A stretch of DNA of 64,000 bases from a bacterium (GTDB lineage Bacteria > Gemmatimonadota > Gemmatimonadetes > Gemmatimonadales > Gemmatimonadaceae): assembly GCA_021813725.1 (NCBI GenBank), contig JAKAJN010000001.1, positions 12,990-76,989 on the forward strand. The letters are read 5' to 3'. Shown here piece after piece: positions 1 to 29,573 of the stretch. Within the stretch, counting starts at the first letter, position 1; the number at the start of each line of letters is the position of its first letter. The position numbers and the translations under genes were made by a program. The notes under the pieces were generated by a model. It ran no database searches. It was not told where the DNA came from and saw only the letters and a program-made list of their open reading frames with translations.

Positions 1-737
1 CGGCGCGGTATGTGCGCATCGAGGTCTCGCGCCTCGACCGGCTGGTCAACTTGATTGGCGAGCTGCTGCATGCGCGCGACCAGCTCACGACGCTCGTGGA
101 TGAGCGCGCCGACGCCACCCTCGACGCGGCGATGCAGCGCGCGTCGCAGCTCATCGCCGACCTCCAGGCGGAGGTGATGGCGAGCCGACTGGTGCCGGCC
201 TGGCACCTCTTCGACCGCTTCCCGCGCCTCGTGCGGGATGCGGCGCGGGCGCTGCACAAGGAAATCGAATTCACCATCGAGGGGCGCGACCTCGAAGTGG
301 ACCGATTCCTGCTCGACGAACTCGGCGAGCCGGTGGTGCATTTGCTGCGCAACGCGGTGGACCATGGCATCGAGGCGCCCGATTGGCGCGAAGCGTCGGG
401 CAAGCCGCGCGCGGGTCGCGTGGTGCTGAGCGTCGTGCGCGACGGCGCCGCGGTGCTCGTGCGCGTGCGGGACGACGGACGCGGCATCGATCGCGAGCGG
501 GTGCGCGAGCGGGCGCGCGAGCTTCACCTGCTCGCCGACGACGCACGCGCGTTGGACGACGACGCGCTGCTGCAGGTGATTGCCACGCCCGGCTTCTCGC
601 TCGCCCCCGAAGTCAGCGACCTCTCGGGACGCGGCGTCGGGATGGATGCGGTGCTCTCGCGCGTGCGCCATCTCGGAGGCGCGGTGCAGTTGGCGTCGGC
701 GCTGGGAGAGGGGACCACGATGACTCTTCGCTTCTGA
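1..737 (+). CDS. cheA: CheA-type histidine kinase, 5'-truncated by the window edge. It has P3 dimerisation and P4 HATPase domains only, with no P5 (CheW-like) domain.
   Basis: The frame is open from nt 3 (..ARYVRIEVSRLDRLVNLIGELL is P3-like). N box HLLRNAVDHGIE, G1 box DDGRGID and G2 box SGRGVGMDAV are present. The ORF stops right after the ATPase domain (GEGTTMTLRF*). Confidence 0.8.
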   Translation, partial: ARYVRIEVSRLDRLVNLIGELLHARDQLTTLVDERADATLDAAMQRASQLIADLQAEVMASRLVPAWHLFDRFPRLVRDAARALHKEIEFTIEGRDLEVDRFLLDELGEPVVHLLRNAVDHGIEAPDWREASGKPRAGRVVLSVVRDGAAVLVRVRDDGRGIDRERVRERARELHLLADDARALDDDALLQVIATPGFSLAPEVSDLSGRGVGMDAVLSRVRHLGGAVQLASALGEGTTMTLRF

Positions 738-747
738 GGGCGGCACC

Positions 748-1368
748 ATGGACGACGTCCGGAACCTCAGCACCCGCCAGCTCGACGCGCTGCGCGAAGT
801 CGCGAACATCGGCGCGGGCCACGCGGCGACGGCGCTCTCGCAGATGACCGACCAGACCATCATGATCAGCGTGCCGCGACTCAGCGCGTACCCGCTGAGC
901 GAGGGCGCGCATCAGGTGGCCGGCAGCGAGGAGCGGGTGGTGGCGGTGAACATGGGGATGGCCGGCGACCTGGCGGGCGCCACGACGCTCGTCTTCCCGC
1001 AGGGAAGTGCGCTGCGCGTCGCCGAAATGATGGCGCGGCGCCCGGCCGGCAGCTTCACGAGCATTGGCGCGTTCGAGCAGTCGGCGATCCAGGAGGCGGG
1101 GAACATCCTCGGCTCCGCCTTCCTCAATGCCCTCGCGGAGTTCATGGGGATGACGCTGCTTCCCACGCCGCCCTCGTTCGAGGTGGACACGGCGAGCGCG
1201 GTGATGGGCGCGTTCGGTCGCGCACTGCCCGGCCTGGGCTCGCTCGCGTTCGTCATCGAGACCGAGTTCTTCCTCAAGGAACGGCAGGAGCCCCTGCACG
1301 GCTTCTTCTTCATGCTTCCCGACGCGGCGTCGCTCGACCAGATCCTCAAGGCGGTGCGGTTGGCATGA
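748..1368 (+). CDS. cheC: CheC-family CheY-P phosphatase
   Basis: Both D/S-x3-E-x2-N-x22-P active-site motifs are intact (DALREVAN..22..P and SAIQEAGN..22..P). The gene starts 10 nt after the cheA stop. Confidence 0.8.
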   Translation: MDDVRNLSTRQLDALREVANIGAGHAATALSQMTDQTIMISVPRLSAYPLSEGAHQVAGSEERVVAVNMGMAGDLAGATTLVFPQGSALRVAEMMARRPAGSFTSIGAFEQSAIQEAGNILGSAFLNALAEFMGMTLLPTPPSFEVDTASAVMGAFGRALPGLGSLAFVIETEFFLKERQEPLHGFFFMLPDAASLDQILKAVRLA

Positions 1369-4076
1369 GCCGCGCGACGCTCGCCTCCTCCCGGGACCGC
1401 GACGTCCTGCGGGCGCTGGCGCGCCGCATCGATCCCTCCGATGCCGGCGCGCACAACAATCTCGGCGTGCTCTTCTACAACAAGGGGCTCCCCGAGGAGG
1501 CCGTGCAGGCGTTCACCAAGGCGCTCGAGCTCGACCCCAAGATGCCGGTGGCGCAGCGCAACCTCGAGATCGCCTACTACAACACCGGCTACTACGACCG
1601 CCACGTGGCGGACCTCAGGGAGCGACTGCGGCTGCGCGCCGACGATCGCGATGCGCGCTGGGAGCTGGGGCGCACCTTCGCCCAGCTCGGCGAGAGCGAG
1701 GAGGCGATTCGCGAGTTCGAGGAGCTGCTGCGGTACGACGGCACCGACCTCGGCGCCATCGTGCAGCTGGCGTTGGCCCAGAAGGCGGTGGGGCGGCTCG
1801 ACGAGGCGCAGCGATGGTTCGTGCATGCGCTCGAGATGGATCCCACCAGCTCGGTGGTCGCCTTCTACCTGGGTGAGACGCTGTACAACCAGGGGCTGAT
1901 GGACGAGGCGCTGGTCTCGCTGCAGCGCGCCATCCAGTTGAACCCGGAGAACCCCGATGCACACTATCTGCTCGGCTTCGTCTATGGGGACATGGGACGG
2001 GCCGAGGAGGCGCGCGCGGCGAGCAAGCGCGCGGTGCAGCTGAATCCGGCGCTGTCGCGCGAGCAGGCCAACCTGGCCATCGCCAAGTACGATCCCGGCG
2101 CGCACGAGGCGCTGCTCGCCGCGCGCCACACGCGCGCGTCGCAGCGGATGCTGGTCGCGGAGCACGACGGACTCGCGCACTACAACCTCGGGCTTGCCTT
2201 TCGGCAGAAGGGGTACTTCACCGAGGCGCTGCGCGAGTACCAGATGGCGCTCGACCGCGGGGAGGAGCGCCCGCTGGTGCAGCAGGCGATGGCCGAGGTG
2301 CACCTGCTGCGTCAGGATCCCGCGGCGGCGCTCGCGCTCTACGACGCGCTGCTCGCCGAGCGGCAGGACAGCCCGAAGCTGTGGAACGAGCACGGCGTGG
2401 CGCAGCACCAGCAGGGACATCACGCCGAGGCGGCCGCCGACTACCGGCGCGCACTGGGGCTCGACCCGCGCTATGCGCTTGCCTCCAACAACCTGGGGGT
2501 CGCGCTCTTTCACGCGGGTGACCGCGACGCGGCGATCGGCGCCTTTCGCACGGCAATCGCCGCCAACCCGGGCTTCGTCAAGGCGCGACTGAACTTCGCG
2601 CTGCTGCTCGCCCGTGCCAAGCGTGCGCAACTCGCGCTGGAAGCGTATCGGCAGGTGCTGGTCACCGACGGCGAGAATCCCGTGGCGTGGAACGGCGTCG
2701 GGCTCGTGCTCGCCGAACTGCGGAAGTTTGAGGATGCGCGCAACTCGTTCGCGCGCGCCATCCAGGCGCGACCGGAGTTTGCCGAGGCGCACTACAACAT
2801 GAGCTTCGCGCTCTCCAATCTCGGCGACTTCGAAGGGGCGTTGCGCGAGACGCGCCGCGCGCTGGAGCTCGACCCGTACTACGTGCCGCAGAAGTTCTCG
2901 CTGGCCATCGACCTCGAGTACGAAGATCCCGACCTGTCGGTCGTTCCCGACCTCGGCGGCGAACAGCGAATGAGCACGGAAGTCGGGCAGTTCGCATTCG
3001 ATCCAACGCTGCTCGACACCCTGTTCAAGGAACTCGCTCCACCACCGGTGCCGGCCGCGGCGGTCGTGCTCGAGGCCGAGCCGTACGCGATGGCCGCGGA
3101 TTACCTCACCAAGGGGCTGTACGACCGTGCCACGGCGGAGACCAGCCGCGCGATGGCACGCGGCGCCGACCTGGCCGACGGATACGCCTTGCTGGGCGAC
3201 GTGCTGTATCGGCAGGGCGCGTACGGCGACGCGCTGGAGCGATTCCGCGCGGCGAGCCGCACGCGCGCCGGCCACCGGCGTGCGCTGCAGGGGGAAGCGC
3301 AGTCGCTGATGATGCTCGGACGCGGCACCGAGGCGCGCCTCGTGGCCGAGCAGATCCTGAGCACGGCGCCGGACGACGTGGACGCACTGATGCTCGCGGC
3401 ATCGGCGCGCTTCGAGGCCGGGGACCCGGCCGCCGCGCTTGAGGCGCTGGAGCGTGCGCGCCGCCTCGCGCCGCAACGCGCCGAGGTGCTGCGCTGGATC
3501 GGCAACATCGCCCGTTCCGTCGGCGATCTCGAGGGCGCGATCTCGGCGTACCGACATGCCCTCGCGCTCGACAAGGACTTTGCCGCGGTGCGGTTCGAGT
3601 TGGCGCGCCTGCTCGTGCGGAAGTCGGCGTGGGAGGAGGCCGAGCGCGAGCTGTTGACGGCGCTCGATTCGGTGCCGACGTACGCCGAGGCGACACTCGA
3701 ACTGGCGAGCCTCAAGCGCGTCACGGGACGGCCGCGCGAGGCGGTGGACCTGCTCGTCGACCTGCTGCAGCGCGACCCGTACAACTTCGAGGCGCTGATT
3801 GCGCTCGGGGAGACGCTGCTGACGATGGGGCGCAGCGACGACGCACGCACCGCCTTCACGCGTGTGCTGCGCTTCGACCCGACGCACGTCGGCGCCATCT
3901 TCTACGACGGCGTGCTGGCGGCCGGAGCCAAGCGGTTCCGTGACGCGATCGCGGCCTGGCAGCGGGTCGTGGATCTCGAGCCGGCGGGCGAGTTCGCCCG
4001 CCGCGCGCGGCGCGAAATGCGCACGGCGCAGGACCTGCTGCAGGTGTTCGGCCGGCGCGCCGGAGGAGACGGCTGA
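1365..4076 (+). CDS. Large TPR-repeat protein (903 aa)
   Basis: TPR-like repeats run along the whole length (e.g. AHNNLGVLFYNKGLPEEAVQAFTKALELDP). The ATG overlaps the cheC stop (ATGA). Confidence 0.85.
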   Translation: MSRATLASSRDRDVLRALARRIDPSDAGAHNNLGVLFYNKGLPEEAVQAFTKALELDPKMPVAQRNLEIAYYNTGYYDRHVADLRERLRLRADDRDARWELGRTFAQLGESEEAIREFEELLRYDGTDLGAIVQLALAQKAVGRLDEAQRWFVHALEMDPTSSVVAFYLGETLYNQGLMDEALVSLQRAIQLNPENPDAHYLLGFVYGDMGRAEEARAASKRAVQLNPALSREQANLAIAKYDPGAHEALLAARHTRASQRMLVAEHDGLAHYNLGLAFRQKGYFTEALREYQMALDRGEERPLVQQAMAEVHLLRQDPAAALALYDALLAERQDSPKLWNEHGVAQHQQGHHAEAAADYRRALGLDPRYALASNNLGVALFHAGDRDAAIGAFRTAIAANPGFVKARLNFALLLARAKRAQLALEAYRQVLVTDGENPVAWNGVGLVLAELRKFEDARNSFARAIQARPEFAEAHYNMSFALSNLGDFEGALRETRRALELDPYYVPQKFSLAIDLEYEDPDLSVVPDLGGEQRMSTEVGQFAFDPTLLDTLFKELAPPPVPAAAVVLEAEPYAMAADYLTKGLYDRATAETSRAMARGADLADGYALLGDVLYRQGAYGDALERFRAASRTRAGHRRALQGEAQSLMMLGRGTEARLVAEQILSTAPDDVDALMLAASARFEAGDPAAALEALERARRLAPQRAEVLRWIGNIARSVGDLEGAISAYRHALALDKDFAAVRFELARLLVRKSAWEEAERELLTALDSVPTYAEATLELASLKRVTGRPREAVDLLVDLLQRDPYNFEALIALGETLLTMGRSDDARTAFTRVLRFDPTHVGAIFYDGVLAAGAKRFRDAIAAWQRVVDLEPAGEFARRARREMRTAQDLLQVFGRRAGGDG

Positions 4077-5041
4077 TGGCAATCGAAGGCCCGCTCCGCG
4101 AACTCGGCATCCACGACGTCTTCCAGCTCCTCGACCTGAGCCGGAAGTCCGGCGTGCTTCGCGTCGTCTCGCGGTTGCGCGACAACGAGGGGGTGGTGGC
4201 CTTCCACGCCGGGCGCATCGCGTACGCGTCCATCCGCAGCAATCCGCACCCGATCGGCGAGATGCTGCTGAAGGCCAGCAAGATCACGGCGGCCGAGCTG
4301 GATGCCGCCCGCGAGCAACAGACGCAGCACGGCGACCGGCGGCGTATCGGCGAGATCCTGATCGAGATGGGTGCTATCACGCCACGTGACATTGAGCAAT
4401 ATGTGCGTCGGCAAGCCGAGGCGGTGGTGTTCGAGCTGATGAGCTGGCGCGAGGGGCACTTCCGCTTCGAAGAGGCGAGCGCCGACGAACTCCCCGACAA
4501 CCCCTCGGTCGCGGTGTCCACCGAGTCGGTGCTGATGGAGGCGGCGCGCCGCATCGACGAATGGTCGCGCATCGCCGACCGCGTGCCCAGTCTCGCGGTG
4601 ATCCCGGAGTTCGCCGAGGCCGCCGAGGAGCACAGCGGCCAGCTCGACCTGCTGCCGGGCGAGTGGGAAGTGCTGACGCTGATTGACGGCGCGCGGGACC
4701 TGCGCCGGATGGCCGTCGATCTCGCGCGCAGTGAATTCGACGTGGCCAAGATCGTCTATGGACTGGTGAGCACCGGCGTGGTGGTGCTGCGCGAGCCCGA
4801 CCGGCGGTCGCGCGCGGTGGCGATGGACAGCGACGCCGAGGCGGAGCGGCAAGCGAACATCCGGGCGCAGGTGCTGCAGGGGCTGGCGGCGGTGACGGGT
4901 GGGCGGCTCGACGACGCCATTCGCGTCTGGTCGCACTATCTCGGGGCGCACGCCGGCGACAAGGACGCGCCCGCGGTGCGCGAGGCGGTGGAGGCGGCGG
5001 AGCGGCTGCGGCGATCGGTGGAGGTGTTGCGTGGCGAGTGA
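4076..5041 (+). CDS. PATAN (DUF4388) domain protein with a T2SSE_N/MshEN-like segment
   Basis: The N-terminus GPLRELGIHDVFQLLDLSRKSGVLRV is DUF4388-like. It is followed by PIGEMLLKASKITAAELDAAREQQ..RIGEILIEMGAITPRDIEQYVRRQ. The start overlaps the previous stop (TGATG). Confidence 0.7.
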   Translation: MAIEGPLRELGIHDVFQLLDLSRKSGVLRVVSRLRDNEGVVAFHAGRIAYASIRSNPHPIGEMLLKASKITAAELDAAREQQTQHGDRRRIGEILIEMGAITPRDIEQYVRRQAEAVVFELMSWREGHFRFEEASADELPDNPSVAVSTESVLMEAARRIDEWSRIADRVPSLAVIPEFAEAAEEHSGQLDLLPGEWEVLTLIDGARDLRRMAVDLARSEFDVAKIVYGLVSTGVVVLREPDRRSRAVAMDSDAEAERQANIRAQVLQGLAAVTGGRLDDAIRVWSHYLGAHAGDKDAPAVREAVEAAERLRRSVEVLRGE

Positions 5042-5954
5042 CGACATTCGCGCCCTCAGCGAGGCACTGGCCGCCGATCCGGCAAGTCTGGCGTTTGTGC
5101 CGCTGGGCGAGGCGCTGCGGCGCCGCGGCGACCTCGAGGTCGCGCTCCGCGTGGCGCTGCGCGGCGCGGAGCGCCACGGCACGCGCCCCGACGCGCACGA
5201 TCTCGTCGCGCGGATTGCGGTGGACCTCGGCGACCTCGAACGCGCCATCGTCGAGTGGGAGACCGTGCTGCGCATCGACCCCGCGCACGCTGGCGCGCGG
5301 AAGGGACTCGGCTTCATCTGCTTCCAGCTCGGTCGGCTCGAAGAGGCCGCATCGCACCTGTCGGTGGCGCTCTCGCTGAGTCCGGGGGATGGCTCGCTCG
5401 CCGCCGCCCTGCAGACGGTGCGCGACGAGCTGGCGGTGCGCGAGGAGTCGTCGGGGCGCTCGACGATGCAGTTCTCGCGCGAGGCGATGGCCGCGGACCC
5501 CGGGGGCGCTGCGGTGCGGCAGCGCCAGACCGCGGATCCACCCGCGCGACCGACGCTGGGTCTGGCCGCGGTGCGCGAGCAACCCGACGCCGACGCGGGC
5601 GCGCTCTTCGACGACCTGCTCGAGGGACAGCGCAGCGCGGCAATGCTGCTCGACGGCGACGGCCTGGTGCTCGCCGGCCGATACGTCTCGGCCGACGGTC
5701 GCGACCTCGCGGCCCTCATTGGCGCGCAACTGTCGGGCGTGAGCGACGAGGCGACGCGCGCCATGCGGCACCTGGGCCTCGGGGGGTGGCGGCAGATCGT
5801 CTTCGAGACGGAAGCGGCGTCGGTGGCGATGGCGCCGAGTCGGGACGGCGTGCTGCTGGTGGCGGCGGCGCGGCCGATTCCCCTCGGCTTCGTGCGGCGC
5901 GTGCTCGAGCGCGCGCTCGCGCGCGCCGTCGAGTGGCTGGGAGGTGCGGCGTGA
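5031..5954 (+). CDS. TPR + Roadblock/LC7 fusion protein
   Basis: The GTG at 5031 is in the frame of track ORF 4899..5954. The N-terminal half is TPR-like. The C-terminal half (AAMLLDGDGLVLAGRYVSADGRDLAALIGAQLSGV...VLLVAAARP) looks like a Roadblock/LC7 fold. Confidence 0.6.
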   Translation: MASDDIRALSEALAADPASLAFVPLGEALRRRGDLEVALRVALRGAERHGTRPDAHDLVARIAVDLGDLERAIVEWETVLRIDPAHAGARKGLGFICFQLGRLEEAASHLSVALSLSPGDGSLAAALQTVRDELAVREESSGRSTMQFSREAMAADPGGAAVRQRQTADPPARPTLGLAAVREQPDADAGALFDDLLEGQRSAAMLLDGDGLVLAGRYVSADGRDLAALIGAQLSGVSDEATRAMRHLGLGGWRQIVFETEAASVAMAPSRDGVLLVAAARPIPLGFVRRVLERALARAVEWLGGAA

Positions 5955-6298
5955 GTTCCGTCTTCTCGACGCTCACCGAATCGTTGATCCGGCACCGCGG
6001 GGTGCTCGGGGCCATGGTCGTGGGACTCGACGACGGACTGATCGTGGAGTCGACGCTGCAAATCGGCGTCAACGGCAACGCCTTCGCGGCGCTCACGGCG
6101 TCACTCTATCGCAAGGCGCGGCGGTCGGCCGCGGCGGCGGGCTTCGGGGCCACCGGGTTCCTGGAGCTGACGGCGGAGCAGGGACGCGTCTGCACGGCGG
6201 GAGGCCAGGAGCTCGTGCTTGTGGTCGTGTGCGAGTCGCGCGTCAACGTCGGCATGCTGCGGGTGGAGCTGCTGCGCGCCGCGGAGCAGCTGCCGTGA
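5951..6298 (+). CDS. Roadblock/LC7 domain protein (115 aa)
   Basis: The GTG at 5951 overlaps the previous stop (GTGA). The sequence HRGVLGAMVVGLDDGLIVES...ELVLVVVCESRVNVGMLRVEL is typical of single-domain Roadblock proteins. Confidence 0.65.
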   Translation: MSSVFSTLTESLIRHRGVLGAMVVGLDDGLIVESTLQIGVNGNAFAALTASLYRKARRSAAAAGFGATGFLELTAEQGRVCTAGGQELVLVVVCESRVNVGMLRVELLRAAEQLP

Positions 6299-6768
6299 GG
6301 TTCTCCGTCGTCGCCTCGTGGGTGGAGACGCCCCTCAAGCAGTTCGTGGACGATGCCCGTGTGGAGATCGCCGTGCTGATGCATCCGAACGGCCAGGTGC
6401 TCGGACAGTACGGCTTTGCGCGCTCGGTGGACGTGATGACGGCGTGCGCGCTGGCATCGGCCATCCACGCCTCGTCGTCCGAACTCGGCCGTCAGCTCGA
6501 GGGGCAGCCGTTTTCGACCCTGCACTACATGGGGCGCGACCGCCAGATCTTTCTTGGTTCCATTGCTGCCCCGTCGGGCGCGCTGCTGCTGCTCGCGGTG
6601 TTCGACCGCGAGAGTTCGCTCGGGCTCGTGCAACTGTTCCTGGAGGAGTTCCGCGCCCGCGTGGCCGTCTCGGCGCCGCCGCCCGTCCTGGACGGGCCGC
6701 CGGTGATGCAGGAGAACTTCGAGCGTGACCTCAATCGCAATCTCGCCCAGCTATTCGGACGGGCATAG
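6295..6768 (+). CDS. mglB: MglB-like Roadblock/LC7 protein (probable MglA GAP)
   Basis: The GTG at 6295 overlaps the previous stop (GTGA). VLMHPNGQVLGQ...LLLLAVFDRESSLGLVQLFLEEF resembles the MglB FD..TSLGLVRL signature as I recall it. The gene lies immediately upstream of mglA. Confidence 0.7.
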   Translation: MRFSVVASWVETPLKQFVDDARVEIAVLMHPNGQVLGQYGFARSVDVMTACALASAIHASSSELGRQLEGQPFSTLHYMGRDRQIFLGSIAAPSGALLLLAVFDRESSLGLVQLFLEEFRARVAVSAPPPVLDGPPVMQENFERDLNRNLAQLFGRA

Positions 6769-6804: not shown

Positions 6805-7401
6805 ATGAGCCTGGTCAACTACGCCACCCGAGAGATCACGTGCAAGATCGTCTACTACGGACCCGGGCGGTCCGGAAAGACGACGAACCTGCATTACATT
6901 TACGGGCAGGTGCCGTCCGACCGGAAAGGGCAGATGGTGTCGCTTGCCACGCAGACCGACCGGACGCTGTTCTTCGACTTCCTGCCGCTCGATCTGGGGA
7001 CGATCTCTGGCTTCACGACGCGGTTCCAGTTGTACACGGTTCCGGGGCAGGTCTACTACCAGACGACGCGCAAGCTCGTGCTGCAGGGGGCGGACGGCGT
7101 GGTCTTCGTGGCCGACAGCCAGTCGCGCCAGCTCGACGAGAACATCGAGAGCTTGCAGGACCTGCACGCCAACCTGGCGGAGCACGGGGTGGACGCGCGC
7201 AGCATCCCGCTGGTGCTGCAGTACAACAAGCGCGACCTTCCAGGGGAGCTGCTGCTGCCGGTGACAACGCTCGAGGACGCGCTCAATTTCCGTGGCGTGC
7301 CGTCGTTCGAGGCGGACGCACTGCACGGGACGGGCGTTTTCGAGACGCTGCGTTCCATCTCCGAACTGGTGCTGCGCCGGCTGGGCGCATCGAAGGGGTG
7401 A
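6805..7401 (+). CDS. mglA: MglA, Ras-like polarity GTPase
   Basis: P-loop GPGRSGKTT, intrinsic Arg in TDRTLFFDF, catalytic Gln in YTVPGQV and an NKRD box (LQYNKRDL) are all present. The protein aligns along its full length with Myxococcus MglA as I recall that sequence. Confidence 0.93.
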   Translation: MSLVNYATREITCKIVYYGPGRSGKTTNLHYIYGQVPSDRKGQMVSLATQTDRTLFFDFLPLDLGTISGFTTRFQLYTVPGQVYYQTTRKLVLQGADGVVFVADSQSRQLDENIESLQDLHANLAEHGVDARSIPLVLQYNKRDLPGELLLPVTTLEDALNFRGVPSFEADALHGTGVFETLRSISELVLRRLGASKG

Positions 7402-7402
7402 T

Positions 7403-9259
7403 GTGGTGACCGACGCGCGCGAGACATTCGGGCGGTTCGTGGTCGGGGCGAACAATCGTCTCGCCGCCGCGGCCGCGCGCGCGGTGGCCGAATCGCCGGG
7501 GGCGACGTACAACCCGCTCTTCATCTACGGCGCGCATGGACTGGGGAAGTCGCATCTGCTCGGTGCGGTGGCCGACCTTGCGGCGGGACTCTGGCCGGAG
7601 CTCGAGATACGGCGCGACGACGGCGCGCACTTCGTGGCCGGGCACGCGGCCTCGGTCGCGTCCGGCTCCGCCGAGGGGTTCCTCGCTGCGCACGCCCGCG
7701 CCGGGATGCTGCTGCTCGACGACGTGCACGCGCTCGAGGGGCATCCGTCCGCGCAGCTCGCGCTCGCGGCGCTGATTGACGGACTCGTGAGCGCCGGACG
7801 TCAGGTGGTGCTGGCCGCCGACCGGCTGCCCGCGGGGATCGCCGAGGTCGAGGAAGCGCTGGCGAACACCCTTTCGCAGGGGTTGCTCGTGGATGTCGCC
7901 GCCCCCGACTACGAGACGCGCGCGGCCATCCTGCAACGGATGGCCACGGAGCAGGGGCTCGAGCTTACGAACGACGTGGTGCAGGACCTCGCGGCGCGTG
8001 AGTATCGGGACATCGACGAGCTGCGCGCGGCGCTGGCGCCGATCGCCTCCGGCCAGCGAAAGCCGGCACCCAAACTCGACGCCGGCGAGTTCGAGAGCTT
8101 CCTGAGCGACGTGCAGGTGGTGGTGCAGCAGCACGTGGAGTCGTGGCGCGGCCGGCTCAAGGAAGCCATTGCCTACTGGCAGGCCGAGGGCTTCCGCACC
8201 GGCGTGCTGGAGCGCGCGCTCGACCTGCCCCGCGCTCCCGACGTGGCCGGACTCACCGCCACCTTCACCGCCGCGGTGGAGCACCTGCGCAACCTCGAAC
8301 GGCAGGCGCGTCAGGTGGATCCGTCGCTCGTGGGGCACGCGGTCTTCCGCGATCCGGAGCGCATGGAAGCGGCCGAAGATCTCGTGGAGCGCGCGCTGTC
8401 GGGGGAGGCGCGGGCCAAGGGCCCGAGCCCGGCCTTCGTCCGCGAAGGCTTCGAGGTGGGCGCGTCGAACCAGCTGGCGGTGCACGCCGCCGACGCGGTC
8501 GTTGCGGAGCCGGCGCACCGCTACAACCCGCTCGTGCTCTACGGCCCGAGCGGCGTCGGCAAGACGCACCTCGCCAACGCGATCGGCAACGCCCTGCAGC
8601 TGCGCGGCGACCGGCACGGGGTGGCGTGCGTCAACGCGCAGCAGCTCGTCGATGAACTCATCGAGGCGGTGCATCGCGGCGACGTCGACCGCTGGCGCGC
8701 GCGCTATCGCGCCGCCGGTGCGCTGATCGTGGATGACATTCAATTCCTCGGCGGCAAGGAGCGCACGCAAGAAGAGTTCTTCGGCATCTTCAACACGATG
8801 ATCGAGCACGGGCGACAGGTGGTCGTCACCAGCGACCGCGTGCCGGCGGACATCACCGACCTCGAGGCGCGCCTGCGCTCACGGTTCGAGGGCGGCCTCG
8901 TGGTTCCCATCCAGTCGCCCGACCGCACGCTGCGCGAGCGGCTCTTCGCGCGCTATCTCGCCGACGCCGGCCGCGCCGCTGACGAGGAGGTCCTGCACCT
9001 CCTCGGAGACCACCCGGTGCAGAGTGTGCGCGAGATCATCGGCCTCGTCACGCGCCTGGGAGCCGCGGCGGAGCTGCACGGCGCGGACATCACGGTGGCG
9101 TTCGTGCAGGGCGAGCTGGGCGATGCGGTCGCCGCGGCGGCGCCGCGCGCGCCGCGCATTTCAGCCGCCGTGTCCATCGGCGATCCGTTCCTCGACCACG
9201 AGAAGACCGTCTTCGAGTGGCCGGATGCGGGCGCGCGTCTCATCGAGGAGATGCGCTGA
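7403..9259 (+). CDS. Tandem DnaA-domain-III (Hda-like) AAA+ ATPase lacking DnaA domains I, II and IV
   Basis: Module 1 (about 7424-8041) reads TFGRFVVGANNRLA..YNPLFIYGAHGLGKSHLL..LLLDDVH..VVLAADR. Module 2 (about 8435-9106) reads GFEVGASNQLA..YNPLVLYGPSGVGKTHLA..LIVDDIQF..VVVTSDR..LEARLRSRFEGGLVV..SVREIIG. The GTG start lies 1 nt after the mglA stop. Confidence 0.8.
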   Translation: MVTDARETFGRFVVGANNRLAAAAARAVAESPGATYNPLFIYGAHGLGKSHLLGAVADLAAGLWPELEIRRDDGAHFVAGHAASVASGSAEGFLAAHARAGMLLLDDVHALEGHPSAQLALAALIDGLVSAGRQVVLAADRLPAGIAEVEEALANTLSQGLLVDVAAPDYETRAAILQRMATEQGLELTNDVVQDLAAREYRDIDELRAALAPIASGQRKPAPKLDAGEFESFLSDVQVVVQQHVESWRGRLKEAIAYWQAEGFRTGVLERALDLPRAPDVAGLTATFTAAVEHLRNLERQARQVDPSLVGHAVFRDPERMEAAEDLVERALSGEARAKGPSPAFVREGFEVGASNQLAVHAADAVVAEPAHRYNPLVLYGPSGVGKTHLANAIGNALQLRGDRHGVACVNAQQLVDELIEAVHRGDVDRWRARYRAAGALIVDDIQFLGGKERTQEEFFGIFNTMIEHGRQVVVTSDRVPADITDLEARLRSRFEGGLVVPIQSPDRTLRERLFARYLADAGRAADEEVLHLLGDHPVQSVREIIGLVTRLGAAAELHGADITVAFVQGELGDAVAAAAPRAPRISAAVSIGDPFLDHEKTVFEWPDAGARLIEEMR

Positions 9260-10881
9260 TGGCCATTCGCGGCAGTCTCAAGGAAGCGAGCCTTCCCGAC
9301 GTCCTGCAGCTCCTGTCGATGGGCAAGAAGACCGGCTGCCTGTCGGTCACGCATCGCTCCAACTTCGGGTCGATCTACTTCGACAAGGGCAAGATCTCGT
9401 ACGCCTCGATCGTGAATCGCCGCGACCGCCTCGGCGACATCCTGATGAAGAGCGGCGTGATCACGCAGGTCCAGCTCGAGGAGGGAATCGCCGCCCAGGC
9501 GCACGAGCGCGACAAGCGCCTCGGCGAGATTCTCGTCGATCGCCGCATCATCACGCGCGAGGAGCTGCACCGGCAGATTCGGCTGCAGATCGAGGAGGCG
9601 GTGTTCTTCCTGTTCACCTGGACGCAGGGGACGTTCAACTTCGAGGCCGAGATTCGCCCCGAGGAACAGGACTTCCTCGTCTCCATCAACCCCGAGTCGC
9701 TGCTCCTCGAGGGGGCGCGCCGCGTGGACGAGTGGAGCCTGATCGAGAAGAAGATTCCCGGCTTCGACATCGTCTTCGAGATTGACCGCAAGCGCCTGGC
9801 CGACAGCGGCGTGGCGCTCACGGCGGAACAGGAGGCCGTGGTGCCGCTCATCGACGGGCGACGCGACGTGGCGGCGATCGTGGACGAGACCGGGATGGTC
9901 GAGTTCGAGGTGGGGAAGGCACTCTACGGTCTCGTCACCGCCGGCTTCCTGCACCGCGTCGGCAAGACGACGAAAGTGGCGGAGACGGCCGCCCCGGATG
10001 CGCGCGTGGAAGAGCACCGCAACCTCGGGACGGCATTCTACAAGGCCGGCATGCTGGACGAGAGCGTGCGCGAGTTCCGTCGGGTGCTCGAGCTGCGGAG
10101 CACCGACGTGCAGGCCCGCTTCTACCTCGGGCTCGTGCACATCCGGCAGGGCAAGTTCGCCGACGCGGTGACGGATTACCAGGAGATTGCGTCGGCGCGC
10201 GCCGCCAAACCGGCCGTCTTCCACAACCTCGCGCTGGCGCTCGAGGCGCTCGGCCGCTGGGACGAGGCGCGGCAGGCGCTGCAGGAGGCGGTGAAGCGGG
10301 GCGGTGCGCAGGATGCGCGCGTGCTGATGGGGCTTGGCATTCTGCACCTGCGCGCCGGCGACGCGACTGCCGCCGACGCGGCGCTGATGGAGGCGCGCCC
10401 ACTTTTCACCCAGCGCGCGCCGGGCGCGGTCTGGTTCCACTACGCGGCGCTCGCTGCCGCACTCGGCGGGCACCTCGACAAGGCCATTTCGCTGCTCGGC
10501 GAAGGGACGCAGACGCATCCGCACGCCGCCACGCTGTTCAACAACCTCGCCGTCGCGCTCGAGGCCAAGGGGCGTGCCGACGAGGCGCGGGCGGCCGTGG
10601 AGAACGGCGTGCACGAGGATGCGGGCCTGCCGCAACTGCACAAGAACCTGGGCGACCTGTGCTATCGCGCCGGGCAGCTCGACGATGCGCTCGAGGCCTA
10701 TCTCCGCGCGGTGAAGTTCAATGAGCGGCTCGGACCGGACGTGTGGCGCAAGCTCGGCAACATCCGGTTCAAGCGCGAGGAGAAGGACGAGGCGATCCGC
10801 TGCTGGGAGACGGCCCTGGCCATCGATCCCACCGACGCGCGCCTGCAGGCCAATCTTGAGACGGTGCGGGGGACGCAGTGA
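9259..10881 (+). CDS. PATAN (DUF4388) + double MshEN-type motif + C-terminal TPR protein
   Basis: The N-terminus GSLKEASLPDVLQLLSMGKKTGCLSV is DUF4388-like. It is followed by RLGDILMKSGVITQVQLEEGIAAQ and RLGEILVDRRIITREELHRQIRLQ, and then by TPR repeats. The ATG overlaps the previous stop (TGATG). Confidence 0.75.
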   Translation: MAIRGSLKEASLPDVLQLLSMGKKTGCLSVTHRSNFGSIYFDKGKISYASIVNRRDRLGDILMKSGVITQVQLEEGIAAQAHERDKRLGEILVDRRIITREELHRQIRLQIEEAVFFLFTWTQGTFNFEAEIRPEEQDFLVSINPESLLLEGARRVDEWSLIEKKIPGFDIVFEIDRKRLADSGVALTAEQEAVVPLIDGRRDVAAIVDETGMVEFEVGKALYGLVTAGFLHRVGKTTKVAETAAPDARVEEHRNLGTAFYKAGMLDESVREFRRVLELRSTDVQARFYLGLVHIRQGKFADAVTDYQEIASARAAKPAVFHNLALALEALGRWDEARQALQEAVKRGGAQDARVLMGLGILHLRAGDATAADAALMEARPLFTQRAPGAVWFHYAALAAALGGHLDKAISLLGEGTQTHPHAATLFNNLAVALEAKGRADEARAAVENGVHEDAGLPQLHKNLGDLCYRAGQLDDALEAYLRAVKFNERLGPDVWRKLGNIRFKREEKDEAIRCWETALAIDPTDARLQANLETVRGTQ

Positions 10882-11762
10882 CGGCTCCGAATCTGGAATC
10901 GCTGGCGGCGCAGTTCGCCGCAATCGAGCGGCGGCTCGACGCCGGCGTGGGCGCGGGTGAGCGCGATGCGACGCGCCAGGAGATCATCACCCTGTTCCGC
11001 ACGCTGGAGCAGGGGATCGCCGACCTCACGGAAACGGTGTCGGCCCTCTCGACCCTGAAGGAGGACGTCAAGCGCCTGGTGGACAAGTTCAAGGCGCAGG
11101 GCGCCGAAGCCGCGACCAACCACCCCGAGTTCAGCGGCGAGAAGCCCGTCGTGCACGCCGACCACATCGGCGCCTCGACGTTCATCGAAAAGGGTTGGAG
11201 CCGCCTCTCGCTGGGCGACTACGAGGCAGCGGAGACCGCACTGCATCGCGCGCTTGAGCTCTCGCCGAACGATCCGCAGAGCGAAGCGCTGCTCGGCTGG
11301 GCGCAGATGCTGCAGGAGAAGTACGACGAGGCGCTGATGAACTTCCAGAAGGTGCTGATGCGCCAGCCGTCCAACGCACTCGCGCGCATCAACGTCGGCT
11401 ATATCTGCCTCAAGAAGAAGATCTTCGGCGAGGCCATCGAGCACCTCTCCAAGGCGATTCGCCTCGACAACGACAAGAAGGCGACGCTCTACGCGCACTT
11501 CTACCTCGGCCTCGTCTACCTCGAGCGCGAGATGTTCGAGGATGCGCAGACATTCTTCCGCAAGACACTCGCGCTGGGACCGAACCTCATCGAGGCGTAC
11601 TACGAACTGGGCCGCGCGCACTGGTACAACGGCGAGCGGGACGAGGCGAAGGAGGCGTGGCGCACGGGGCACGCGACCAACAAGTTCAACCCGTGGGGCA
11701 AGCGATGCGCCGAGGTGCTGCAGACGGTGGAGGCGGGCGGCGAGCCGCCGCGCTCGCCGTGA
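10878..11762 (+). CDS. Coiled-coil + TPR protein
   Basis: The GTG overlaps the previous stop (GTGA). The C-terminal 180 aa are TPR-like (YEAAETALHRALELSPNDPQSEALLGWAQ...). Confidence 0.7.
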   Translation: MTAPNLESLAAQFAAIERRLDAGVGAGERDATRQEIITLFRTLEQGIADLTETVSALSTLKEDVKRLVDKFKAQGAEAATNHPEFSGEKPVVHADHIGASTFIEKGWSRLSLGDYEAAETALHRALELSPNDPQSEALLGWAQMLQEKYDEALMNFQKVLMRQPSNALARINVGYICLKKKIFGEAIEHLSKAIRLDNDKKATLYAHFYLGLVYLEREMFEDAQTFFRKTLALGPNLIEAYYELGRAHWYNGERDEAKEAWRTGHATNKFNPWGKRCAEVLQTVEAGGEPPRSP

Positions 11763-12775
11763 TCGATCGGCGGGCGGACGCCGCGCGGTGCTCGCGCCGC
11801 GTTCGCCGCGCGCTCGTCCTGCTGGGCGCGGGCCTGCTCACGAGCGTGGCGATCCCCGCGCGCGCACTCCCGCAGGTGGGGGACGACGGGCTTCGGGTGC
11901 TCGAACGCGGCCGTTTCACCGTTCGCTACGCGCCGACCGACGAGCGGCTGGCCAACGCGCTCGCGGCGTCGGCAGCGGCGCGCGACACCTTTCCGGGCCT
12001 GCCGCGGCCGCGGGTGCACGTCGAAATCTGGGTGGCGCCGGACGACAACACCTTTCGCCAGTGGGCGGGAGACGGTGCACCGGAATGGGGCAACGCCTTT
12101 GCCTTTCCGGTGGAACGGCGCGTCGTGCTGCACGGCCACCGCAGCGGCAAGGGGGGCGACGCCCTCGAGGTGCTGCGGCACGAACTCGCGCATCTCGCGT
12201 TGCACGAGGCGCTCGGCGACATGCCGCCGCGCTGGTTCGACGAAGGGTACGCGTCCTATGCGGCCGGCGAGTGGGGACGAGACGAAGTGCTGGCCACGAA
12301 CTTCGCGCTCGCCATCGCCCTCGGACGCCTCCCGACATTTGCCGGCCTCGATTCAAGCTTTTCGCAGGGCGCCACCACGGCGCAGGCGGCGTACGCCTTC
12401 TCGTTTCGCGCGGTGGCAGAACTCGCTGCCATCGACCGCGCGCGAGGCCTCACGCTCTTCTTCGCGTATTGGCGGCGCGACCGATCGCTCGAAATGGCGA
12501 CGCGCCAGGCGTATGGCTTGACCCTCGGCGGGTTCGAGGAGTACTGGCAGCGGGCGACGCGCCGGCGCTACGGCGGACTCGCGCTGGTCACCGATCTCAG
12601 CCTCGGTGCCATCCTGGTGGTGGCGATGGTCGGTCCGCTGTGGATCATCCGCCGCCGTCGCGATCGGCGACGGCTTGAGGCCATGCGCACGGCCGACGCG
12701 GCACAGGCCGAGCGGGAACGCGCGAGCGCGCTCGCGGCACTCCTCGGTGAACAGGGGGAAGGGCCGCCGGATTAG
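11759..12775 (+). CDS. Predicted exported HExxH zinc metalloprotease (peptidase-MA-like) with a C-terminal TM anchor
   Basis: The GTG at 11759 overlaps the previous stop (GTGA). A signal-like N-terminus (RRALVLLGAGLLTSVAIPARA), the motif HELAHLALHE...WFDEGYASY and a C-terminal hydrophobic helix followed by RRRRDRRR are present. Confidence 0.55.
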   Translation: MIDRRADAARCSRRVRRALVLLGAGLLTSVAIPARALPQVGDDGLRVLERGRFTVRYAPTDERLANALAASAAARDTFPGLPRPRVHVEIWVAPDDNTFRQWAGDGAPEWGNAFAFPVERRVVLHGHRSGKGGDALEVLRHELAHLALHEALGDMPPRWFDEGYASYAAGEWGRDEVLATNFALAIALGRLPTFAGLDSSFSQGATTAQAAYAFSFRAVAELAAIDRARGLTLFFAYWRRDRSLEMATRQAYGLTLGGFEEYWQRATRRRYGGLALVTDLSLGAILVVAMVGPLWIIRRRRDRRRLEAMRTADAAQAERERASALAALLGEQGEGPPD

Positions 12776-13048: not shown

Positions 13049-13122
13049 GGGCGAATAGCTCAGTTGGTTAGAGCACCTGCCTTACACGCAGGGAGTCGGG
13101 GGTTCGAGTCCCTCTTCGCCCA
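13049..13122 (+). tRNA. tRNA-Val (anticodon TAC)
   Basis: A cloverleaf was folded by hand. The acceptor stem is GGGCGAA/TTCGCCC and the D stem is GCTC/GAGC. The anticodon stem is CCTGC/GCAGG with loop CTTACAC, and the T arm is GGGGG-TTCGAGT-CCCTC. The discriminator is A and no CCA is encoded. Confidence 0.9.
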
Positions 13123-13192
13123 CTGTTAAGGGACGGCCTCGATGGATCGCGCACCGGCCGTTGCGGGTAGAAGGATTCAACGTTCGGAGGAG

Positions 13193-15177: not shown

Positions 15178-16185
15178 GTGCCCACCCGCTACGACTCCGC
15201 CTACCACGCTCCGGTGCTGGTCGAGGAGGTCCTCGCCCTGTTCACCGGCGCCTCGCGTGCGCTGGACTGCACGCTCGGGGGCGGCGGACACTCGGCCGCC
15301 ATGCTTGACGCCGGGATGGACGTAACGGGCATCGATCGCGACCCGGCGGCCATCGCCGAGGCGTCGCGCCGACTTCAGCCGGCCATCGCGGACGGTCGCT
15401 TTCACGCCATTCGCGGCAACTACGCGGACGCCGAGTCCCTGCTTCCCGCGGACGTCACCTACGACGCGATCCTGCTCGACCTTGGCGTGTCCTCGCATCA
15501 GCTCGACGAGCCGGCGCGCGGATTCTCGTTTCGCGAGGGGGAGCGGTTGGGGGGGGCGATGGAGCAGCTGGGCGGGCACGAGACGGTCGACAGTGGATGG
15601 CAGACGGTGGATCCGTCGACCGTCGACCGTCGACCGTCAACCGTCGCTCCCTGGCACTCCGCCGCCCACTTCCTCAACGAGGCCTCTCTCGCGGACCTGA
15701 CCTCAGCGTTCCGTGAATACGGTGACGAACCCCGCGGCGCGCGCCTCGCCACGGAGGTCATCCGTCGACGGGAACGCCGCCCCTTTGCGCTCAGCGACGA
15801 CCTGGTCGGCGCCATTCGCGCCGTCCTCGGCGCACGCAGCGGCCCATCCGATTTCGCGCGACTGTTTCAAGCCGTCCGGATCGCCGTGAATGACGAACTG
15901 TCCGGGCTCGCGCGTGCGCTCCCGGCCCTGCGTGACCGACTCGCCCCGCAGGGAGTCCTCGCAGTGATTGCGTACCACTCGGGCGAGGACCGGCGCGTGA
16001 AGCTGGCCTTCCGCGAGTGGGCGTCGTCGTGCGTCTGTCCACCCAAGCAGCCCGTCTGTACCTGCCGAGGACGCCCGTTGGGTACCCTGCTGACCCGCAA
16101 GCCGATCACCGCCGGCGACGCCGAGCTCGCGCACAACGTGCGGGCGCGGAGCGCGCACCTGCGCGCCTTCCGCCGGGAGGCCTGA
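15178..16185 (+). CDS. rsmH: 16S rRNA (cytosine1402-N4)-methyltransferase RsmH/MraW, with an internal repeat-derived insertion
   Basis: YHAPVLVEEV, GIDRDP, LLDLGVSSHQLD..RGFSF, FQAVRIAVNDEL and AYHSGEDRRVK are present. It is the first gene of the dcw cluster and starts with GTG. Confidence 0.9.
   Translation: MPTRYDSAYHAPVLVEEVLALFTGASRALDCTLGGGGHSAAMLDAGMDVTGIDRDPAAIAEASRRLQPAIADGRFHAIRGNYADAESLLPADVTYDAILLDLGVSSHQLDEPARGFSFREGERLGGAMEQLGGHETVDSGWQTVDPSTVDRRPSTVAPWHSAAHFLNEASLADLTSAFREYGDEPRGARLATEVIRRRERRPFALSDDLVGAIRAVLGARSGPSDFARLFQAVRIAVNDELSGLARALPALRDRLAPQGVLAVIAYHSGEDRRVKLAFREWASSCVCPPKQPVCTCRGRPLGTLLTRKPITAGDAELAHNVRARSAHLRAFRREA
15613..15647 (+). repeat. Five tandem 7-bp units (CCGTCGA x3, CCGTCAA, CCGTCGC) inside the rsmH coding sequence
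   Basis: Read directly from the sequence. The inverted partner GACGGTCGAC lies at 15582-15591. Confidence 0.9.
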
Positions 16186-16186
16186 A

Positions 16187-16474
16187 ATGCGCGGACGATC
16201 GATGGTCTTTCTCGCGCTGGCCGGGTTCGTGGTGATCGCCACGGGCGTGATCTGGCGGCGCAGCCTCGGCGTCACGCGCGCCCGCGCCATCGAGCAGATC
16301 GAGACGCGCCGCACGGCCCTGGCGGCACAACGAGCCAAGCTCGACGGCGACATCCGGACCGCGATGAGCATGGAGCGGCTCGGCCGCGTCGCCGAAGAAC
16401 GCCTGCATCTGCGCGTGCCGAGCGACAGTCTCGTGGTCACCCTGCGCCGCTCGCCCCGTGTCGCTGTTCGCTGA
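16187..16474 (+). CDS. ftsL: Cell division protein FtsL
   Basis: The 95-aa protein has a single TM helix (MVFLALAGFVVIATGVIW) followed by a coiled coil. It sits between rsmH and ftsI. Confidence 0.6.
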   Translation: MRGRSMVFLALAGFVVIATGVIWRRSLGVTRARAIEQIETRRTALAAQRAKLDGDIRTAMSMERLGRVAEERLHLRVPSDSLVVTLRRSPRVAVR

Positions 16475-19897: not shown

Positions 19898-19900
19898 GCG

Positions 19901-21262: not shown

Positions 21263-22395
21263 TGCTCTACGAGCTCTTCTACCCGCTGCGCGATCATTTC
21301 AGCCCGCTGAACATCTTCCGCTACATCTCGGTGCGCGCGGCCGGGGCGGCGGTCACCGCGCTGCTGGTCTCGTTCATCTTCGGGCCGATGATCATCAATC
21401 GCCTGAAGCACATGGCCCTGCACCAGGTGGTGCGCGAAGGGACGCCGGATTCGCACGCCGGCAAGGGGACGACGCCGACGATGGGCGGGCTGATCATCCT
21501 CACGGCGACGTTGATTCCGACGCTGCTCTGGATGCGGCTCGACAACAAGTATGTCTGGATTGCGCTGATCGTCACCCTGTGGATGGGCGGCATCGGCTTT
21601 CTGGACGACTACCTCAAGCTGAAGCAGAAGCGGGAAGGGAAGGAGAACACGGGGCTCGTGGAGCGCTGGAAGCTTGCGGGGCAAATCACCATCGGGCTCG
21701 CGCTCGGGCTGTACCTCTGGCACTACCCGATCAGCAACCTGCCGGGCGCCTCCACGACGCTGCCATTCTACAAGTACCTCCTGATCGTGCCGACCTTCGG
21801 CCTGCTCTACGTGGCGTTCGTCACCTTCGTGATGACGGGGACGAGCAACGCGGTGAACCTCACCGACGGCCTCGATGGCCTGGCGGCGGGCCTGATGGCG
21901 ATCGCGATGGCGACGCTGGCGATCTTCGCGTACGTGATGGGACGCTACGACACGTCGCAGGCGCTGCTGGTCTTCTACCTGCGCGGCTCCGGCGAGCTGA
22001 CGGTCTTCTGCTCCGCGGTCTTTGGCGCGTCGGTCGGCTTTCTCTGGTACAACTGCTTCCCGGCGCAGGTCTTCATGGGCGACACGGGATCGCTCTCGCT
22101 TGGCGGGGCGCTGAGTTCGGTGGCGATCCTGCTGAAGAGCGAGTTTCTCGTGCTCATCATTGGCGGCGTCTTCGTGGCCGAAACGACGTCGGTGATCCTG
22201 CAGCGCGCGATGTTCAAGTGGCGCAAGCGGCGGTACGGCGTCGAGTACGCACGGGTCAACCGCGTCTTCAAGCGCGCCCCGATCCACCATCACTTCGAAT
22301 TGTCCGGATGGCCGGAGGCGCAGGTGGTGGTGCGATTCTGGATTCTCGGCATCCTGTGCGCCTTCCTGGCGCTGAGCACGCTGAAGCTGCGGTGA
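21262..22395 (+). CDS. mraY: Phospho-MurNAc-pentapeptide translocase MraY
   Basis: The motif NAVNLTDGLDGLA is present in a polytopic membrane protein. The ATG overlaps the murF stop. Confidence 0.95.
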   Translation: MLYELFYPLRDHFSPLNIFRYISVRAAGAAVTALLVSFIFGPMIINRLKHMALHQVVREGTPDSHAGKGTTPTMGGLIILTATLIPTLLWMRLDNKYVWIALIVTLWMGGIGFLDDYLKLKQKREGKENTGLVERWKLAGQITIGLALGLYLWHYPISNLPGASTTLPFYKYLLIVPTFGLLYVAFVTFVMTGTSNAVNLTDGLDGLAAGLMAIAMATLAIFAYVMGRYDTSQALLVFYLRGSGELTVFCSAVFGASVGFLWYNCFPAQVFMGDTGSLSLGGALSSVAILLKSEFLVLIIGGVFVAETTSVILQRAMFKWRKRRYGVEYARVNRVFKRAPIHHHFELSGWPEAQVVVRFWILGILCAFLALSTLKLR

Positions 22396-24979: not shown

Positions 24980-25013
24980 TCGGCGTGACGCCGAACGACC
25001 AGGGCGTCGCGCG

Positions 25014-27518: not shown

Positions 27519-27523
27519 ATGTC

Positions 27524-29551: not shown

Positions 29552-29573
29552 GATTGCGCGGGGGCAGTTATCA

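Follow-up and report, generated by a model that had tools for sequence, protein, structure and literature searches.

A tandem AAA+ gene in a polarity gene cluster

The DNA analyzed here (the window below) is a stretch of 64,000 nucleotides (nt) from a Gemmatimonadaceae bacterium (GenBank assembly GCA_021813725.1, contig JAKAJN010000001.1, positions 12,990 to 76,989) with a G+C content of ~69%. Near its start, ten genes in a row, from cheC (which begins at 748) to a gene for a 294 amino acid (aa) tetratricopeptide repeat (TPR) protein (which ends at 11762), share start/stop overlaps (ATGA, TGATG or GTGA) with one another; the exceptions are a gap of 36 nt before mglA and one of 1 nt before the gene that is the subject of this report, and the arrangement suggests that the ten genes form one translationally coupled operon. 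The gene in question encodes a protein with two tandem DnaA-type AAA+ modules, here called M1 and M2, and we find that it belongs to a real, conserved and previously undescribed family of DnaA AAA+ variants that lies in an unexpected signaling context. Its GTG start at 7403 is in frame within a longer open reading frame (7292..9259), has GAAGGGG just upstream and is the first nucleotide but one after the mglA stop codon (TGA, 7399-7401). This choice of start is supported by more than 110 full-length database homologues that agree with the 618-aa product in length and N-terminus, the latter being MVTDARETFGRF (family consensus M.LDPR..F). The features of the gene and its surroundings are collected in Table 1.

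Table 1. Features of the tandem AAA+ gene and neighboring genes in the window
Feature	Residues (aa)	Positions (nt)	Strand	Basis or remark
Tandem DnaA-type AAA+ gene, 618 aa	1-618	7403..9259	+	GTG start, TGA stop; Pfam Bac_DnaA x2
M1, DnaA domain III-like AAA+ core and lid	1-215	7403..8047	+	Alignment to B. subtilis DnaA; motif table; AlphaFold2
M1 Walker A, GAHGLGKSH	43-51	7529-7555	+	
M1 Walker B, LLLDDVH	103-109	7709-7729	+	
M1 sensor I region, VVLAADR	135-141		+	
M1 box VII, VEEALANTLSQGL	149-161	7847-7885	+	No arginines
M1 sensor II		8003-8035	+	Asp replaces Arg
Disordered segment, M1 to linker	218-244	8054..8134	+	AlphaFold2 pLDDT <50; poorly conserved
Family-specific helical linker domain	245-335	8135..8407	+	AlphaFold2; conserved in distant representatives
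Linker motif VFRDPER..EAE		8342-8377		Conserved
M2, complete DnaA domain III-like AAA+ module	340-575	8420..9127	+	Alignment to B. subtilis DnaA; Foldseek; motifs
M2 Walker A, GPSGVGKTH	381-389	8543-8569	+	
M2 Walker B, LIVDDIQF	441-448	8723-8746	+	
M2 KERTQEEFF segment		8753-8782	+	Carries the E. coli R245 equivalent
M2 sensor I, VVVTSDR	473-479	8819-8839	+	
M2 box VII with Arg finger, LEARLRSRFEGGL	487-499	8861-8899	+	
M2 sensor II, SVREIIG	541-547	9020-9049	+	
Disordered tether (578-~593) and C-terminal peptide DPFLDHEKTVFEWPDAGARLIEEMR-COOH (594-618, nt 9182-9256)	578-618	9134..9256	+	AlphaFold2, alignment
cheA, C-terminal part, runs off the window		12-737	+	Pfam H-kinase_dim/HATPase_c
cheC		748-1368	+	Pfam CheC; ATGA overlap with TPR gene
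TPR protein, 903 aa		1365-4076	+	Pfam, synteny, overlapping junctions
PATAN protein		4076-5041	+	Pfam, synteny, overlapping junctions
TPR+Roadblock		5031-5954	+	Pfam Robl_LC7 1.7e-8
Roadblock/LC7 (MglB-like)		5951-6298	+	Pfam Robl_LC7 2.8e-5; GTGA overlap
Roadblock-like		6295-6768	+	Pfam Robl_LC7 1e-3; GTGA overlap
mglA, small Ras-like GTPase, 198 aa		6805..7401	+	Pfam Arf/Ras/Roc
PATAN (PatA_N/DUF4388)-TPR		9259..10881	+	Pfam DUF4388 3.5e-38 and TPR; ATG overlaps AAA+ stop (TGATG)
TPR protein, 294 aa		10878..11762	+	Pfam; GTGA overlap with PATAN-TPR gene
Peptidase_MA_2 protein, 3' of cluster		11657-12775		
tRNA-Val		13049-13123		
TPR protein, 602 aa		13142-14950		
dcw cluster (rsmH, ftsL-like, ftsI, murE, murF, mraY ... 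ftsZ)		15178-33225		

Two DnaA domain III modules and no DNA-binding domain

Pfam recognizes Bac_DnaA in two stretches of the 618-aa protein (E=4.8e-86), and neither DnaA_N nor Bac_DnaA_C is matched in it; its order is M1, a disordered segment, a helical linker, M2 and a tail. We searched for hidden DnaA domains with tblastn, using domains I/II and domain IV of E. coli and Myxococcota DnaA as queries (E. coli DnaA sequences also entered the tree below), and neither the window nor the 80 related loci gave a match in any frame, so that no frameshift conceals a DNA-binding domain and a hidden domain IV is rejected. The layout that an earlier, sequence-only reading of this DNA had described, a tandem DnaA domain III protein that lacks a DNA-binding domain, is thus upheld by Pfam and tblastn and also by Foldseek (below), and the frameshifted domain IV which that reading had said would overturn it was not found. 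Might the gene nevertheless have arisen by error, as a dnaA with a frameshift or a faulty assembly, or as two genes that a sequencing mistake has joined? The architecture is unusual, and the automatic names given by JGI and NCBIfam do say DnaA; against this, the full-length homologues, of which there are more than 110 with 594-648 aa, were obtained from assemblies independent of each other, 72 of the family are orthologues from species-representative genomes, no domain IV is found in any frame and the flanking genes are conserved. The chance of an artefact is vanishingly small, and we regard it as refuted.

To which branch of the AAA+ proteins do the two modules belong? Both align without gaps to domain III of B. 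subtilis DnaA at 35-37% identity; M1 does so with E=4e-34, compared with only 6e-8 to Hda chains in the PDB, and M2 with E=1e-44. The best Foldseek match of the AlphaFold2 model is domain III of B. subtilis DnaA (8bv3) with a TM (template modeling) score of 0.93. AlphaFold2 places two helices between beta2 and beta3 in M1 (H74-87/H90-98) and in M2 (H412-425/H428-436), so both modules carry the extra helix of the initiator-specific motif that defines the initiator clade, and the alignment to DnaA is ungapped there. The NCBIfam DnaA model TIGR00362 gives 407.9 bits (cut-off 343.9), a value that exceeds the cut-off only because the scores of two domain III copies are summed. It matches at model positions 100-342 of 437, that is, it ends short of the domain IV helix-turn-helix, which Pfam, tblastn and hhalign likewise failed to detect. 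The Hda models remain under their cut-offs (TIGR03420, 168.5 vs 194.8; PRK09087, 63 vs 297), as do those for the DnaC/IstB group (IS21_help_AAA, 75 vs 200; DnaC, 22.6 vs 357; DnaI, 42 vs 228), and no beta-clamp-binding motif of the QL[SD]LF type is conserved in the family alignments, the sole QLxL string being inside a helix and not conserved. Foldseek superposition on the type II tandem AAA+ protein p97 gives root mean square deviations of 25-30 Å at 15-17% identity, so the two proteins do not have their modules arranged alike. Profiles, Foldseek and the tree described below all place the halves with DnaA and not in another AAA+ clade, and these comparisons indicate that both modules derive from DnaA rather than from Hda; the earlier description of them as Hda-like modules is not sustained.

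The tandem protein thus shares with DnaA the insertion and lid in both modules and, in M2, the Walker A and B motifs, sensor I Asp, box VII Arg, arginine finger and sensor II Arg, but differs in having two modules and no domains I, II and IV, so that it cannot read DnaA boxes, and in having an additional linker domain and C-terminal peptide. Its gene is also not beside dnaN: neither a DnaA_N domain nor an oriC-type context (rnpA/dnaA/dnaN/recF) is present, and the surroundings are those of a GTPase/PATAN/TPR operon, unlike those of a true dnaA locus such as L087. Like Hda it is a DnaA-type AAA+ protein that lacks a DNA-binding domain and whose arginine finger could act in trans; Hda, however, consists of just one such module, ~230 aa in length, and carries a beta-clamp-binding motif at its N-terminus. 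Like p97/Cdc48, NSF and ClpB it has two AAA+ modules per chain, one of which is often degenerate or slow to hydrolyze in those proteins, but they belong to another AAA+ clade and form stacked hexameric rings, whereas initiator-clade modules normally form open spirals. A side observation in this regard is P0179 (673 aa, ENA), which has two DnaA domain III modules followed by a recognizable end of domain IV (…GRDHTTV…), so that tandem domain III layouts occur with a DNA-binding domain as well.

The set of DnaA domain III features occurs twice, complete in M2 and, in M1 of this protein, without the sensor II Arg and the arginines of box VII. All of the motif strings quoted for the two modules in the sequence-only reading are present in the order in which they were given. 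M2 has the equivalents of the sensor I Asp, of R281 and R285 in box VII and of R334 in sensor II (E. coli residue numbers), and with them all of the residues on which the ATP-dependent self-association of DnaA relies; no variation is seen at these positions in 68 homologues (52-100% identity), and the M2 catalytic motifs are nearly invariant down to ~46% identity. In M1 of the window protein the GKS of Walker A, the DD of Walker B and the Asp of sensor I (ADR) are intact, and Ala and Thr occupy the positions of R281 and R285, so that the alignment and the motif table confirm that this module lacks an arginine finger, as had been read from the sequence. Its sensor II arginine is gone as well (IDEL, compared with IREL in B. 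subtilis DnaA), which had been missed. The Ala earlier reported at its sensor I threonine position is there (T/S to A), but it precedes the sensor I residue, which in DnaA is usually the Asp of SDR (D269 in E. coli) and which M1 keeps.

The residues at two positions by which DnaA contacts single-stranded DNA are retained in M2 (Ile at V211 and Arg, within KERTQ, at R245). Together with the two-helix initiator-specific insertion in both modules, they would fit a protein whose M2 binds single-stranded DNA (or RNA) and so ties the nucleoid to the polarity module. We consider such nucleic acid binding very unlikely, since the protein is strongly acidic (net charge about -29, M2 alone -9), M1 has no basic residue at the R245 position, and there is neither a duplex-DNA-binding domain in the protein nor any DNA-metabolism gene in its context.

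The linker domain and the C-terminal peptide

Two further parts of the protein, the linker domain and a fixed C-terminal peptide, are hallmarks of the family; neither had been recognized as such in the first reading, which had described a helical linker between the modules. AlphaFold2 agrees that the linker (aa 245-335) is helical and adds that the preceding residues 218-244 are disordered. Modeled alone, this domain of ~90 aa has a mean predicted local distance difference test value (pLDDT) of 88.5 and a predicted TM-score (pTM) of 0.76, and it carries the conserved motifs W..W..EGYRT..LE and VFRDPER..EAE. A Foldseek search of the PDB with the linker model returned nothing at E<1 (best E=2.7), and hhalign of the linker or the tail against DnaA domains I and IV gave probabilities of <2% (0.1% for the linker against domain I), so decayed DnaA domains I or IV are rejected as the origin of either part.

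The tail follows M2 as a flexible tether (pLDDT <50 across aa 578-607) that leads to a peptide at the very end of the protein with the consensus (S/R)xEK(M/V)VWxWP(D/E)....R(L/I)(I/V)EE(L/F/M/W)(R/x)-COOH. This consensus is present in nearly every member of the family, including those with 27-35% identity, the protein ends at the same position right after it family-wide, and variants of it remain in lineages whose locus lacks the mglA and Roadblock genes. The C-terminal EEVD peptides of Hsp70 and Hsp90 are bound by TPR clamp domains, and the tail resembles them in being a short acidic-hydrophobic peptide at the exact C-terminus, on a disordered tether, with four TPR proteins encoded nearby; it differs in usually ending in Arg and not Asp and in being a longer motif, with EKxVWxWPD upstream.

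Distribution of the family and decay of M1

A homologue search of 1.84 billion cluster representatives showed that proteins with the M1-linker-M2-tail layout span 27-88% identity to the window protein, with dozens of 50%-identity clusters sharing it down to 27-31%. Species-representative genomes were also scanned with linker-specific patterns made from a five-sequence alignment, which gave 163 relatives, and the loci described below are those of the best 80. These best 80 of the 163 are from Gemmatimonadota metagenome-assembled genomes (MAGs), except for one record labelled Planctomycetota, and those more distant members that carry names are likewise Gemmatimonadota. Free-living bacteria carry a canonical dnaA, and since the tandem protein cannot recognize DnaA boxes we assume that these genomes do so too. 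In databases the family appears as "DnaA/Hda family protein", "ATP-binding protein" or, wrongly, "chromosomal replication initiator protein DnaA" (JGI), and this recurrent mis-annotation can mislead origin prediction and gene-content surveys in the Gemmatimonadota.

In a neighbor-joining tree all M1s, all M2s and the canonical DnaAs form three separate groups, and since each clusters apart from the others the duplication that gave rise to the two modules was a single ancient event that preceded the radiation of the family. The canonical DnaAs closest to M2 are those of Myxococcota, Chloroflexota, Acidobacteriota and other phyla, and M1 of the clade to which the window protein belongs is on a long branch.

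The M1 motifs were surveyed in 72 full-length orthologues from the species-representative genome loci. Both box VII arginines and the sensor II arginine are jointly lost only in the window protein and those of 11 other species (72-84% identity), and the same 12-species group has the GKT to GKS and TSDR to (A/S)ADR changes. In most of the ~58 species with identities of 37-58%, M1 reads DERL(I/V)SRLSGGL and NVRELQGAL, that is, the module is complete, although in a few of the most divergent of them (40-43% identity) one or both M1 arginines are also gone. The asymmetry between modules noted in the sequence-only reading is therefore real in the window protein and is not a family trait; judged from these motifs, M1 degeneracy is the derived state of one narrow subclade and does not define the family. 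M1 of that subclade is probably a nucleotide-binding module that neither hydrolyzes ATP nor activates hydrolysis, and lineages with intact and degenerate M1 offer a natural experiment on arginine finger function.

Such decay could mean that the AAA+ folds serve as rigid, perhaps nucleotide-stabilized platforms for which hydrolysis is irrelevant. The loss of the arginine finger and sensor II in M1 of the window clade speaks for such a pseudo-ATPase scaffold, as do the variable loss of Walker A or sensor motifs from M1 or M2 in distant lineages and the fact that this is the fastest-evolving gene of its operon. We nonetheless think it unlikely, as most of the ~58 species among the 72 have all catalytic motifs in both modules and the M2 motifs are invariant at 52-100% identity, and such strict conservation argues for selection on catalysis in most of the family.

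Conservation of the operon

The gene order TPR, PATAN, three Roadblock genes, mglA, AAA+ and PATAN-TPR is present in 80 of the 80 Gemmatimonadota loci that have enough flanking sequence, so that linkage of the family to mglA and Roadblock genes is general, with two lineages lacking mglA (below). The gap from the mglA stop codon to the AAA+ start is 5 nt or less in 73 of 74 loci, which supports the tight coupling to mglA first noticed from the 1 nt gap in the window. In 68 of 74 loci the PATAN-TPR start is at -1 to +3 nt from the AAA+ stop. Where the downstream flank is long enough, the gene for the 294-aa TPR protein is also present; it is directly adjacent to the PATAN-TPR gene in the window and a few other loci and is 3-6 kb past it in most. 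A member with 31% identity has the same cluster with a response regulator gene and cheC ahead of it, and a 44%-identity member (L083; GCA_964584905.1, CAZPCC010000424.1, 1-16186) has the cluster embedded in a full chemosensory operon, in the order cheA-cheC-[cluster]-cheR-cheD-cheB-cheW-cheW. Two lineages (L086 8001-12310 and a contig of JGI 3300056388) have only AAA+, PATAN-TPR, (TPR) and Peptidase_MA_2 genes, with no mglA or Roadblock gene, and the AAA+ protein of one of them is 897 aa long. The PATAN-TPR gene, and not mglA, is thus the most constant partner of the tandem AAA+ gene, as the two are neighbors in all loci seen, even where mglA is missing.

This context bears on the possibility that the protein is an Hda-like regulator of replication, in which the M2 finger would enter DnaA-ATP or cap DnaA filaments at oriC and the Che and MglA proteins would tune initiation, so that polarity would be coupled to replication. 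The arginine finger, box VII Arg, the equivalents of R227 and L290 and the KERTQEEFF segment of M2 are all invariant at 52-100% identity, DnaA is the nearest relative of both modules, and the cluster is beside the dcw cell-division genes, all of which would suit such a regulator. On the other hand, the ten neighboring genes all have to do with signaling or polarity and include no replication gene, the best Hda model score falls short of its cut-off and no clamp-binding motif is conserved (above), M2 itself loses Walker A or sensor residues in distant lineages, and the closest canonical DnaAs are from unrelated phyla, which gives no sign of co-evolution with the host DnaA. On balance a role of this kind is rather improbable. 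A related reading, that M2 uses the surfaces by which DnaA docks on a neighboring DnaA-ATP and on single-stranded DNA, all of which it retains, to hetero-oligomerize with or cap the DnaA filament at oriC under Che/MglA control, is a long shot; if it were true, the capping would be a direct molecular link from a polarity GTPase switch to replication initiation.

A possible role in cell polarity

The explanation that we favor, and that could fall either way, is that the protein is a non-replicative descendant of DnaA that serves as an ATP-dependent assembly subunit of a Che/MglA/PATAN polarity or motility module, with its tail docked on a TPR partner and its assembly under MglA-GTP and Che-like control. 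The phylum-wide place of the gene in a small-GTPase operon and the lack of a DNA-binding domain argue for a polarity or motility role over one in replication. The mechanism that we infer from the architecture, the M2 residues, the fixed tail and the operon coupling would be as follows: ATP bound to M2 (and to M1 in most lineages) would drive head-to-tail association in the manner of DnaA, through box VII and the arginine finger; the EKxVWxWPD...RLIEELR-COOH tail would dock on a TPR domain, for which the PATAN-TPR protein, being translationally coupled, is the likeliest source; assembly would cluster or orient the PATAN and TPR output domains and would be gated by MglA-GTP; and ATP hydrolysis would reset it. 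The Che-like pathway and MglA-GTP would control the building or remodeling of the complex. Of the two functions offered in the sequence-only reading, the nucleotide-dependent scaffold for the GTPase module is thus the one that the context favors, with the amendment that the most constant partner is the PATAN-TPR gene and not mglA, and the Hda-like regulator of DnaA is favored less.

Several observations weigh against the assembly-subunit explanation. Walker A or sensor residues are lost from either M1 or M2 in distant lineages, and given this motif decay ATP turnover may not be needed throughout the family. The AAA+ protein is only 37-88% identical across loci compared with 81-98% for MglA, which makes its gene the fastest-evolving of the operon. 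The full-length AlphaFold2 model has good individual domains (pLDDT about 90-97 in M1) but a pTM of 0.47, so the geometry of M1 relative to M2 in it is unreliable, also as regards the pseudo-dimer supposed in the sequence-only reading. The proposed docking of the C-terminal peptide on a TPR domain is drawn from the conservation of the peptide and its analogy to the EEVD-TPR pairs of Hsp70 and Hsp90. The window contains no pilus, gliding or flagellar gene, and the dcw cluster ~3.4 kb downstream of the polarity cluster (also present at that place in L081; DivIVA, ileS and rluD are upstream in L086) would suit a function in division or polar growth no less than one in motility. Pili, some other motility machine, and polar growth or division are all candidates for the output of the module, and the evidence favors none of these.

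Relation to described systems

Literature searches on tandem or paralogous DnaA proteins, on DnaA-like proteins in MglA systems and on Gemmatimonas dnaA returned nothing on this family, in agreement with the earlier statement that it has no described counterpart. The components of its operon do have precedents. PATAN domains serve as the outputs of PatA-type regulators, and in Synechocystis they bind PilB1 and PilC, two proteins of the pilus motor (10.1101/2021.06.11.447907). In Myxococcus, PilB is brought to the pilus machine by the TPR protein SgmX, which is itself recruited by MglA-GTP, and PATAN proteins are among the candidate SgmX interaction partners that have been considered (PMC11580455). 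The Gemmatimonadota cluster resembles these systems in bringing together MglA, Roadblock proteins of the GAP (GTPase-activating protein) type, TPR and PATAN proteins and a Che-like input, but no AAA+ ATPase is part of the described ones, and no DnaA-derived protein is known to take part in any of them. Wuichet and Sogaard-Andersen (2014) listed the neighborhood of GAU_1409 in G. aurantiaca as "PATAN>MglA>-PATAN>" (PMC4316618 supplement), and by its position the unclassified "-" after MglA most likely corresponds to the tandem AAA+ gene. The same supplement shows that, of the two MglA genes of G. aurantiaca T-27, GAU_1115 is accompanied by MglB alone and GAU_1409 belongs to the PATAN cluster, from which it follows that the cluster in the window is a second, specialized MglA system.

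Initiator-clade proteins of the DnaA type are known to initiate replication (DnaA), to inactivate initiation (Hda) and to load helicases or serve in transposition (DnaC, IstB). In the present family the DnaA module has been duplicated, has no DNA-binding domain and is fixed phylum-wide in a small-GTPase polarity operon with chemosensory wiring. If the proposal above is correct, the protein would be the first ATP-driven part of an MglA/PATAN/TPR module, and the engine of the replication initiator would have been exapted for cell-polarity signaling.

Other observations

DnaA-type modules were met in two further settings. In a metagenomic locus (L084 2681-16490), proteins of 921, 246 and 1876 aa combine MshEN with one or two DnaA-type AAA+ modules and adjoin genes for a prepilin peptidase and a PilB-like ATPase (MshEN-T2SSE). 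Here, too, DnaA modules may have been put to a use outside replication, in this case one connected with pili. An 806-aa protein of a Thermoplasmata MAG, P0252 (L085 8001-10421), joins a DnaA domain III to a PilB3_N/T2SSE ATPase in an archaeal pilus locus. Its DnaA part is ~65% identical to clostridial DnaA, and we rejected it as Rosetta-stone evidence because it is a singleton and a possible assembly chimera or very recent transfer.

In the remainder of the window, the Peptidase_MA_2 gene that follows the cluster is found downstream in distant loci too (L081, L086). Unrelated to the cluster is a region at 36415-48202 with two NuoF-like (Complex1_51K) genes on opposite strands, a molybdopterin oxidoreductase gene and a gene for a NiFe-hydrogenase large subunit.

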